Assembly (NCBI RefSeq): GCF_045037415.1 | Contig: NZ_CP173438.1 | Strand: one strand, 5' to 3' | Length of the DNA: 64,000 nt | Origin: Escherichia coli | Lineage (GTDB): Bacteria; Pseudomonadota; Gammaproteobacteria; Enterobacterales; Enterobacteriaceae | Part shown: in pieces, positions 41,401 to 44,400 of the stretch | How positions within the stretch are numbered: position 1 is the first letter of the stretch | Layout of the letters: each line of letters starts with the position of its first letter | Position numbers: made by a program

Positions 41401-44400
41401 TCGCTTCTTCTTTGGTGGCCGCTTTGCGACCGAGGAAGATGTTCTCCGCGCCCAGTTTGAACAGGTTAGCACTGGAATCGTCAAAGCTGTCTTTCAGACT
41501 GTCTTTCACTTTCACTTCGTTTTCAGTATGGCGCTGGGCAGCAACCAGACGTTCGGTCAGGCTGGTGTACAGGCCGCTGTCGAGGAAGTTGGTCAGCGAA
41601 ATATGCTGTGCCTGCGGAACCTGGCGCATAGCGCGTTCGGTCAGGTCACGGTGAGTGATGACCAGGTCCACATCTGGCGGCAGGTTGTTGATCGCGCTGT
41701 TAGTGACCGAAATCTGCGACAGACCTGCATCCTGAATTTTCTTACGCAGCACGCCTGCACCCATCGCACTGGAACCCATACCGGCATCACAGGCAACGAT
41801 GATTTTACGGACGTGGCTCAGGTCGTTAGTCACATCGCCTGCAGACAGCGGAGACGCACCTTTAGACTCAGCTTTCATTTCCTGAACGCGACGTGCAGCA
41901 GCTTCAATATCATCTTCTTCTTTCACTTTGCTGGTTTTCAGCAGAATGGCAGAGACAACGAAGGAAACTGCCATCGCCGCACACACACCCGCGATGTTAG
42001 CGAAGTAAGCACCTTTTGGCGTCATCGCCAGTACAGCAAGGATAGAACCCGGAGATGCCGGAGAAACCAGCCCACCGCCCAGGATAGTCAGCGTGAATAC
42101 GCCAGTCATACCGCCGAGGATAACGGCCAGAATCAGACGCGGATTCATCAGCACATACGGGAAGTAGATTTCGTGGATACCCCCCAGGAAGTGGATGATT
42201 GCCGCACCGCCCGCAGACTGTTTAGCGCTACCACGACCAAAGAACATGTACGCCAGCAGCACGCCCATACCTGGACCTGGGTTAGCTTCAATCAGGAAGA
42301 AGATGGATTTACCCAGTTCATGGGACTGCTGAATACCCAGCGGCGAGAAGATACCGTGGTTAATGGCGTTGTTGAGGAACAGGATTTTCGCCGGTTCAAC
42401 AAAGATAGACGCCAGCGGCAGCATGTCATGGACAACCATGAAGTTAACGCCCGCCGCCAGCATTTTGGACAGGGCTTCAACAATCGGGCCAATGCCGAGG
42501 AATGCCAGAATAGCGAGGATCATCCCGATGATGCCTGCGGAGAAGTTATTCACCAGCATCTCAAAACCGGATTTGATCTTACCGTCTACCCAGCGGTCGA
42601 AGTGCTTAATGCACCAGCCGCCCAGCGGACCTGCAATCATAGAGCCGAGGAACATCGGCATGTCTGCGCCGACGATAACGCCCATGGTGGTAATGGCACC
42701 GACTACGCCGCCACGTTCGCCGCCAACCAGCTTACCACCGGTATAACCGATCAGCAGCGGCAGGAGATAAGTGATCATCGGCCCGACCAGCTTCGCCAGC
42801 GTTTCGTTCGGTAACCACCCTGTTGGAATAAATAACGCGGTGATGATACCCCACGCGATAAACGCGCCGATATTTGGCATCACCATGTTGCTGAGGAAAC
42901 GACCAAAGCTTTGCACTTTGATCTTAATATCGGATGACATAAAAACACCCCTTCTTATGTTTGCTGTCGCGCAGGCTGGAAGCCCGAGGTTTTTTGTTAA
43001 TGTGGCGGCAGAGGTAGCCGGACCTTGTAGATACTGCGAAATCTGGCACTGAATCGGTTAACTGTCCAGTCGGCGGCCTTTTGTGTGATATCAGTCACAT
43101 AAATGTAGGGGGTAGAGAGGTAATTGACGTGATGCTCATCACAAAATGCTTGTGTAAAAAAGCAACAAGGCGGCGATTTTCGCTAAAAATGGCATTTAAA
43201 TGTGAGTAATGTCACATTTTTGTTTTGATGGTTTGTTGAATCTTTGTGATCTGAATCACAAGATATTTTCTTACGGCGTTCACCTGATGTGATCTACAGC
43301 ATGTTATGCCTTCGTCATGAAATCGTTATGTAACTAAGCAACTCATCACCTCTTAAAATTATTCTTTGGTGTTATGGCGAGAATCGCGAACCCGGATTAT
43401 TGTCAAAATATCAGCCTGACTCCCTTCTGGCTGCCAGCCAAAAAACAACACTGATAAACGTGAATCCGAGGCAGATATGTTTCTAAACTATTTCGCGTTG
43501 GGAGTGCTGATCTTCGTCTTTCTGGTGATTTTTTATGGAATCATCGCGATACATGACATCCCTTATCTGATTGCCAAAAAGCGCAACCATCCCCATGCCG
43601 ACGCTATTCATACGGCGGGCTGGGTGAGCCTGTTTACTCTACATGTTATCTGGCCGTTCCTGTGGATCTGGGCGACGCTCTATCAACCGGAGCGCGGCTG
43701 GGGCATGCAGTCACATGTTGCGTCGCAAGAGAAAGCGACTGACCCGGAAATCGCCGCACTTTCTGACCGAATTTCCCGGCTGGAGCATCAACTCGCCGCC
43801 GAGAAAAAGACTGACTATTCCACGTTTCCGGAGATCTAAATATGGATCTATTGATTGTTTTAACTTACGTGGCGCTGGCGTGGGCGGTCTTTAAAATCTT
43901 CCGCATTCCGGTAAATCAGTGGACGCTGGCGACGGCGGCGCTGGGAGGCGTGTTTCTGGTGAGTGGTTTGATCTTGTTGATGAACTACAACCACCCTTAC
44001 ACTTTTACCGCGCAAAAGGCAGTGATAGCGATCCCCATCACGCCACAGGTGACGGGAATTGTTACTGAAGTCACCGACAAAAATAATCAGCTTATTCAGA
44101 AGGGCGAGGTGCTTTTTAAGCTCGAGCCGGTTCGTTACCAGGCGCGAGTTGACAGACTTCAGGCAGACCTGATGACGGCGACGCATAATATAAAGACGCT
44201 GCGCGCGCAACTCACTGAAGCGCAGGCCAACACCACCCAGGTTTCAGCGGAGCGCGACCGTCTGTTTAAAAATTATCAACGTTATCTGAAAGGCAGCCAG
44301 GCGGCGGTGAATCCGTTCTCGGAACGTGACATCGACGATGCGCGGCAAAATTTCCTCGCGCAGGATGCGCTGGTGAAAGGCTCGGTGGCGGAGCAGGCGC

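Follow-up and report, generated by a model that had tools for sequence, protein, structure and literature searches.

We analyzed a window of 64,000 nt (64 kb) of Escherichia coli DNA (NCBI RefSeq assembly GCF_045037415.1, contig NZ_CP173438.1), in which the mannitol operon mtlA-mtlD-mtlR lies on the (−) strand and the divergent gene pair yibI-yibH on the (+) strand. The element under study is the array of binding sites for CRP, the cyclic AMP (cAMP) receptor protein, in the 536-bp spacer between mtlA and yibI. The genes around it are listed below.

41027-42940, (−) strand: mtlA, mannitol phosphotransferase system (PTS) enzyme IICBA and first gene of the operon (open reading frame, annotation, Pfam EIIC + IIB + EIIA_2).
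39559-40707, (−) strand: mtlD (SK1144 annotation; Pfam Mannitol_dh).
38972-39559, (−) strand: mtlR (SK1144 annotation; Pfam MtlR PF05068, E = 2.4e-66).
43477-43839, (+) strand: yibI (Pfam DUF3302), divergent neighbor of mtlA.
43842-44978, (+) strand: yibH (Pfam HlyD family), divergent neighbor, 3′ of yibI.

A prediction made previously from the sequence alone (hereafter, the original prediction) had named mtlA and yibI-yibH, and both the annotation of E. coli SK1144 and the Pfam matches show that these names are right. Specifically, a 621-bp region (42900-43520) is 100% identical to SK1144, where it is labeled mtlA/yibI; the identity was compared over this region only, and the names mtlD and mtlR were carried over from the matching SK1144 locus. 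The same region was found at no less than 80% coverage in 5,402 of 5,426 complete E. coli genomes, always with the annotation mtlA / yibI.

The original prediction described three perfect TGTGA-N6-TCACA matches between positions 43084 and 43260. An exact pattern search for TGTGANNNNNNTCACA, the 16-bp palindromic core of the 22-bp CRP consensus, confirmed these coordinates and found three matches only in the 64 kb: TGTGATATCAGTCACA (43084-43099), TGTGAGTAATGTCACA (43201-43216), and TGTGATCTGAATCACA (43245-43260). Relative to the start codons, they are 144–320 bp upstream for mtlA (42940, minus strand) and 217–393 bp upstream for yibI (43477, plus strand). In 100 dinucleotide-preserving shuffles of the 64-kb window, the exact core occurred 0.06 times on average and once at most, with none of the shuffles reaching three. 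When one mismatch was allowed, a single extra match appeared in the 64 kb, at 43128-43143 within the same cluster. With two mismatches, there were 15 matches in the window versus 24.7 expected; since this total is below the chance level, only the mtlA cluster stands out.

Next, we compared the motifs with the published map of the mtl operator. According to Lee et al. (NAR 2026; PMC13421365), the operator contains five CRP sites centered at −262.5, −219.5, −175.5, −102.5, and −58.5 relative to a transcription start site (TSS) mapped with S1, with spacings from CRP1 to CRP5 of 43, 44, 73, and 44 bp. CRP1 matches 7 of the 10 consensus bases, while CRP2 and CRP3 match all 10 (PMC13421365). The sites had been footprinted in 1995 (Ramseier & Saier, Microbiology 141:1901, via PMC13421365). 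In the window, the five sites are as follows.

43084-43099, center 43091.5 (−58.5): CRP5, promoter-proximal, 0 mismatches; exact match at the published position.
43128-43143, center 43135.5 (−102.5): CRP4, CGTGATGCTCATCACA, 1 mismatch; 44 bp from CRP5, as published.
43201-43216, center 43208.5 (−175.5): CRP3, 0 mismatches; 73 bp from CRP4 and 44 bp from CRP2.
43245-43260, center 43252.5 (−219.5): CRP2, TGTGATCTGAATCACA, 0 mismatches; exact match.
43288-43303, center 43295.5 (−262.5): CRP1, TGTGATCTACAGCATG, weak distal site, 3 mismatches (7/10 consensus bases); 43 bp from CRP2.

The computed center spacings from CRP5 to CRP1 are thus 44/73/44/43 bp, with 0/1/0/0/3 mismatches. The three perfect motifs, whose centers are 117 and 44 bp apart, reproduce the published intervals between CRP5, CRP3, and CRP2 and align with these mapped sites. 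Therefore, they are very probably CRP5, CRP3, and CRP2 of the five-site cAMP-CRP operator at the E. coli mtlADR promoter. The locus, the order of the sites, their mismatch pattern and spacing, and the mtlA-mtlD-mtlR context are all the same as in the published operator. Differences from the MG1655 operator amount to strain-level single nucleotide polymorphisms (SNPs), those within sites falling in the central N6 of CRP5, CRP4, and CRP3. Matches with three mismatches are common by chance, so CRP1 is not recognizable from sequence alone, and its identity rests on its position and the literature. The three sites of the original prediction are therefore real, but the array comprises five, with CRP4 (one mismatch) and CRP1 (three mismatches) having been overlooked. 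Nothing that we found contradicts the identification as the five-site mtl operator. The array is already known in detail; it is a textbook regulatory region, not a discovery.

CRP binding, the requirement for particular sites, and the bridging by MtlR are taken from the literature. In genomic SELEX (systematic evolution of ligands by exponential enrichment), the yibI/mtlA spacer ranked second in abundance among the CRP targets, with 38 clones (PMC3105977), and the region is the top-ranked CRP prediction of PhyloScan (PMC1794230). Chromatin immunoprecipitation followed by sequencing (ChIP-seq) of CRP in enterotoxigenic E. coli (ETEC) H10407 gave two peaks at this spacer: one is listed with TGTGATCTGAATCACA and TGTGATCTACAGCATG, which are the CRP2 and CRP1 16-mers of the window, and the other with that strain's own CRP5 and CRP4 sequences (PMC4287617). 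Chromosomal replacement of CRP2, CRP4, or CRP5 abolished mtlD expression and growth on mannitol, while loss of CRP3 had a mild effect, and CRP1 was dispensable and poorly occupied in vitro (PMC13421365). The map match, together with the published SELEX, ChIP-seq, and mutant data, supports the proposal that this dense CRP array serves catabolite control of the mannitol operon. Every genome-wide study counts the mtl sites among its strongest CRP targets, and a new dissection of them followed in 2026.

The original prediction had stressed the density of the sites. It pointed to the right objects, but it missed the key feature, which is a spacing of 43–46 bp that recruits MtlR. This repressor is described as having no DNA-binding domain (PMC13421365). 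In electrophoretic mobility shift assays (EMSA), it supershifted only probes carrying two CRP dimers 43–46 bp apart, with an optimum at 44–45 bp, and MtlR binding was gained when malK, or the 73-bp interval between CRP3 and CRP4, was re-spaced to 44 bp (PMC13421365). Among 331 CRP-regulated E. coli transcription units, mtl was the only one with a 43–46 bp spacing (PMC13421365). The mtl region is the only E. coli operator where the target of a repressor is specified by the spacing of CRP sites rather than by the repressor's own DNA-binding domain. Three inter-site intervals in the window (44, 44, and 43 bp) fall within this range, and the genome encodes an MtlR-family protein at 38972-39559 on the (−) strand (PF05068, E = 2.4e-66), with mtlR intact. 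According to PMC13421365, the spacers between CRP sites bear no similarity to one another; their conservation across species is not discussed there.

We then explored whether this spacing is conserved. One genome for each of ~100,000 species was scanned for two perfect CRP cores 28–58 bp apart (center to center), yielding at least 120 loci. The spacing histogram obtained in this way is a sample, not a census, so the absence of other loci with 43–46 bp spacing is not provable from it. Among the loci listed, there were ~134 pairs, 14 of them at exactly 44 bp and none at 43 or 45 bp. Twelve of these 14 pairs lie directly upstream of an mtlA homolog, at five Enterobacter loci and in Superficieibacter, Citrobacter, Klebsiella, Pluralibacter, an unclassified proteobacterial metagenome-assembled genome (MAG; 94% MtlA identity), Orbaceae (70%), and Actinobacillus (67%). 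The remaining two, not linked to mtl, come from a Bacteroidetes MAG and an actinobacterium. Conversely, every mtlA-linked locus among those listed has the 44-bp pair, the Actinobacillus locus (L097) having a 40-bp pair as well.

Among the Enterobacteriaceae, all five sites were found at 43/44/73/44 bp in 10 of 10 loci, with variation in which of the sites are perfect; Enterobacter sp. Bisph1, for instance, has perfect CRP2, CRP4, and CRP5 sites and a CRP3 with one mismatch. When sequences from 11 species were anchored on CRP5 without gaps, the conserved blocks stayed in register from −240 to −7 with no indel, and a MAFFT alignment agreed with this register. Mean pairwise identity among the 11 Enterobacteriaceae was 89% in the pentamer columns versus 48% elsewhere. 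Within E. coli (MG1655, O157 Xuzhou21, UPEC S115, and GPEC1054), within-site SNPs are confined to the central N6, with none in the pentamers; the other SNPs in these four strains are located between sites or toward yibI, and no indels were seen. The indel-free register across species, the finding that perfect pairs at 44 bp in the genome sample belong almost only to mtlA, and the conserved spacer blocks described below are new here, and the comparison lends modest independent support to the spacing-based model of MtlR action.

In GPEC1054 (L003, about 3378-6200), an IS21-family insertion sequence (IS) element (istA/istB, ISSso4-like) separates CRP2 from CRP1, having inserted at a point equivalent to about 43276/43277 of the window. 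CRP2 to CRP5 stay with mtlA, while CRP1 and yibI lie ~2.8 kb away, which is consistent with the dispensability of CRP1.

The core promoter, as read on the minus strand, could be placed from the published centers.

43063-43068, (−) strand: mtlA −35 hexamer TGGACA (−35 to −30), positioned from the published TSS-relative centers.
43040-43045, (−) strand: mtlA −10 hexamer CAGATT (−12 to −7), 17-bp spacer; AGATT is kept in at least 10 of 11 species.
43033, (−) strand: inferred mtlADR TSS (about ±2 nt), by arithmetic from the published centers, giving a 93-nt leader to the ATG at 42940.
43048-43061, (+) strand: Cra (FruR)-like operator ACTGAATCGGTTAA, between −35 and −10 (−15 to −28), matching RSTGAAWCSNTHHW.

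At the −35 position, CTGGACAG is invariant in the 11 species. A scan of 42900-43520 for consensus promoters and terminators found no credible sigma-70 promoter in either direction; that TGGACA-17-CAGATT escaped a consensus call is expected of a weak, activator-dependent core promoter. The sequence RSTGAAWCSNTHHW, which we take to be the Cra consensus, has three matches in the 64 kb, of which the one at 43048-43061 is a putative Cra operator. A Cra site in the mtl promoter and repression by Cra have been described (PMC13421365).

Taken together, these data suggest the following model. When glucose is absent, cAMP-CRP would occupy CRP2 to CRP5 of the leftward (minus-strand) mtlADR promoter. CRP5, centered at −58.5, probably aids recruitment of RNA polymerase to the weak TGGACA-17-CAGATT, and the distal sites are also required, with DNA architecture or anti-silencing suggested as their role in the literature. 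A dimer of MtlR would bridge two CRP dimers wherever a pair is spaced by 43–44 bp, resulting in repression, and the Cra-like operator between −35 and −10 may repress further.

This model has several limits. The TSS at ~43033 was derived by arithmetic from the published centers rather than mapped directly, and with this literature-inferred TSS, CRP5 at −58.5 misses the canonical position of a Class I site (−61.5) by ~3 bp. The bridging by MtlR comes from a single 2026 paper, which used EMSA, AlphaFold models, and in vivo mutants, and the same paper leaves unsettled how the far-upstream sites activate (PMC13421365). Finally, the cross-species loci were picked by one perfect pair, the perfection of which is therefore not independent evidence; this criterion does not bear on the remaining three sites, on the spacing, or on the lack of indels.

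The original prediction also held that yibI-yibH may be influenced by CRP, since the region is shared. We found no direct support for this idea, and the same array occurs upstream of mtlA without yibIH in other Enterobacteriaceae. An array working in both directions, with the same CRP (perhaps CRP-MtlR) complex also activating or repressing yibI-yibH, is in our view unlikely, though it has several points in its favor. The sites are located within the shared 536-bp spacer, with 181.5 bp separating the yibI ATG from the center of CRP1 and 224.5 bp separating it from that of CRP2, and both of two divergent promoters are often regulated by CRP (Shimada 2011; PMC3105977). The ETEC ChIP-seq peak over CRP2 and CRP1 is entered in the published table under yibI (PMC4287617), but this label apparently names a flanking gene and is not evidence of regulation. 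SELEX with the RpoD holoenzyme recovers the spacer, and a predicted promoter, TCTACA-19-TACAAT (PMC3946193), matches the yibI-directed strand of MG1655, where it overlaps CRP1. The window has TCTACA-19-TGAAAT facing yibI at 43293-43323 on the (+) strand; MG1655, O157, and UPEC have TACAAT at 43318-43323, and SNPs at 43319-43320 have removed the −11 A of the hexamer in the lineage of the window. Moreover, a block at 43365-43392 keeps its distance from CRP1 within ~2 bp in three species with yibI at this locus.

Other observations speak against bidirectional control. The searchable literature contains no yibI TSS, no crp-dependent yibI expression, and no reporter data, and yibI is never mentioned in PMC13421365; the only yibI expression data found report induction in urine. 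No consensus sigma-70 promoter faces yibI; the only candidates are weak −10-like sequences at 43318, 43354, 43370, and 43404, which would place CRP1 at about −35 to −120. CRP1, the site nearest to yibI, is also the weakest and is poorly occupied in vitro, and in one E. coli strain (GPEC1054) the IS21-family element separates it from CRP2. The array has no adjacent yibI in 8 of the 10 Enterobacteriaceae loci, where the neighbors are yibF-selA (4 loci), selA (1), a PTS EIIC gene (1), and others; yibI is the neighbor in 2 of the 10. Since the architecture is identical where yibIH is absent, selection on the array comes from mtlA, and since the array follows mtlA at such loci, CRP control of yibIH remains unsupported. 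It is unlikely that a CRP-MtlR complex on CRP1 to CRP3 also gates a divergent yibIH promoter in E. coli and the few relatives with yibIH inserted beside mtlA. If it did, yibIH would be a hidden second MtlR target, and an uncharacterized membrane pair composed of a DUF3302 and an HlyD-like protein would be tied to the availability of mannitol and glucose.

The block in question, TTTGGTGTTATGGCGAGAATCGCGAACC (43365-43392, [+] strand), is shared by E. coli, Citrobacter sp. FP75, and an Enterobacter MAG, the last of which has ~120 extra bp between the block and the yibI start codon. The block may represent an operator or, with TGnTGTTAT as a weak extended −10, the promoter of yibI. At four loci (L019, L030, L044, and L084), yibF (glutathione S-transferase) and selA adjoin the mtl operator with no yibI-yibH, so that yibIH looks like a lineage-specific insertion between mtlA and yibF, or like a loss elsewhere. 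A yibI mutant of UTI89 had reduced fitness. A study of nitric oxide (NO) scavenging included yibIH among its candidates, and the pair may be NO/NsrR-responsive; we found no convincing match to NsrR half-sites upstream of yibI. In addition, a 1-bp insertion in the mtlA/yibI intergenic region was fixed in an E. coli lineage kept in stationary phase for 1,200 days (PMC7858067). Given that the MtlR mechanism is sensitive to spacing, the position of this insertion would be informative.

It is very unlikely that the five are ordinary, additive CRP activator sites, that their 43–44 bp spacing is incidental, and that MtlR represses by another route. This was the view before 2026, when earlier work by the same group had detected no MtlR-CRP interaction, and the structural model of MtlR with CRP is based on AlphaFold. 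However, the EMSA supershifts depend on spacing, including the gain of binding when malK or the CRP3-CRP4 interval was set to 44 bp. In addition, there are zero indels over ~230 bp in 11 species despite ~48% identity between the sites, and among the loci listed in the genome sample, perfect cores 44 bp apart occur almost only at mtlA. An indel-free register and a pair of fixed spacing linked to mtlA are hard to explain without a constraint on spacing, which favors the model where MtlR bridges CRP dimers. That the array is a chance cluster, or serves another regulator of the CRP/FNR family, can practically be dismissed: TGTGA-N6-TCACA-like palindromes do occur in many phyla (the scan matched Bacillales, Actinomycetota, and others), but three exact matches were found versus 0.06 expected, the pentamers are kept while the flanks diverge, and CRP binding has been demonstrated (PMC3105977, PMC4287617, PMC13421365).

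The mtl operator resembles other CRP-dependent systems in part. At the CytR-CRP promoters (deoP2, cdd, udp, and tsx), as at mtl, a repressor contacts two DNA-bound CRP dimers at a set spacing and turns an activator scaffold into a repression complex (PMC13421365). CytR has its own DNA-binding domain and an operator between the CRP sites, whereas MtlR has no such domain and needs 43–46 bp. CRP sites of the CytR type are ~52–53 bp apart. Class III CRP promoters (malK with four sites; pap with a site at −215) share with mtl the joint action of CRP dimers and the requirement for far-upstream sites, but the malK spacing of 34 bp does not recruit MtlR (PMC13421365). Mlc, like MtlR, is inactivated by binding a dephosphorylated PTS transporter at the membrane, EIICB(Glc) in this case (PMC13421365); it differs in binding DNA directly, while MtlR is tethered via CRP.

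Despite an identity of otherwise ~48%, the spacers hold four short blocks that are conserved in at least 10 of the 11 Enterobacteriaceae.

43264-43268, (−) strand: AAATA (−235 to −231).
43232-43236, (−) strand: ACAAA (−203 to −199).
43157-43161, (−) strand: T5 (−128 to −124), in the 73-bp CRP3-CRP4 interval.
About 43108-43111, (−) strand: CCCC (about −78 to −75).

ACAAA and CCCC fall midway, or nearly so, between the two sites of the pairs that bind MtlR (CRP2/3 and CRP4/5, respectively) and could be previously undescribed determinants of the ternary complex, acting through DNA shape or contacts. The T-tract (43157-43161) may bind Fis or bend the DNA intrinsically.

The mtlA leader (42941-43033, minus strand) also contains blocks common to the 11 species, namely, GGCTACCTCTGCCGCC, TTAACAA followed by AAACCTCGGGCT, and AAGAAGGGGTGTTTT near the Shine-Dalgarno sequence, which are a possible, putative post-transcriptional element. 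No Rfam family matched within 42800-43600 at E ≤ 1, a region covering the 93-nt leader and the sequence upstream of yibI. A terminator-like hairpin at 43062-43076 ([+] strand), followed by CCTTTTGTGT, overlaps both the mtlA −35 hexamer and the CRP5 edge; with 0.5 such matches expected and 1 observed, it has probably arisen by chance.

The scan also returned other recurrent pairs of perfect cores among the loci listed. One, with cores 57–58 bp apart and a similar spacer, was seen in Enterobacter, Citrobacter, and Serratia (L018, 11663-11735; L113, 1400-1472; L043, 139-212; L066, 5696-5768; possibly also L024 and L038). The Citrobacter pair is located between atpC and glmU, ~40 bp from where atpC ends, and its spacer DNA had no BLAST match in E. 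coli. In Pasteurellaceae, perfect pairs 51–52 bp apart share the spacer motif TGAGCGAATGCGAAAAT (L005, L013, L023, L035, and L059), and a second family at 49–50 bp carries TGTAATCGTTTTCATTTA (L012, L034, and L058). With their CytR-like spacing, the Pasteurellaceae pairs look like conserved operators for CRP plus a co-regulator.

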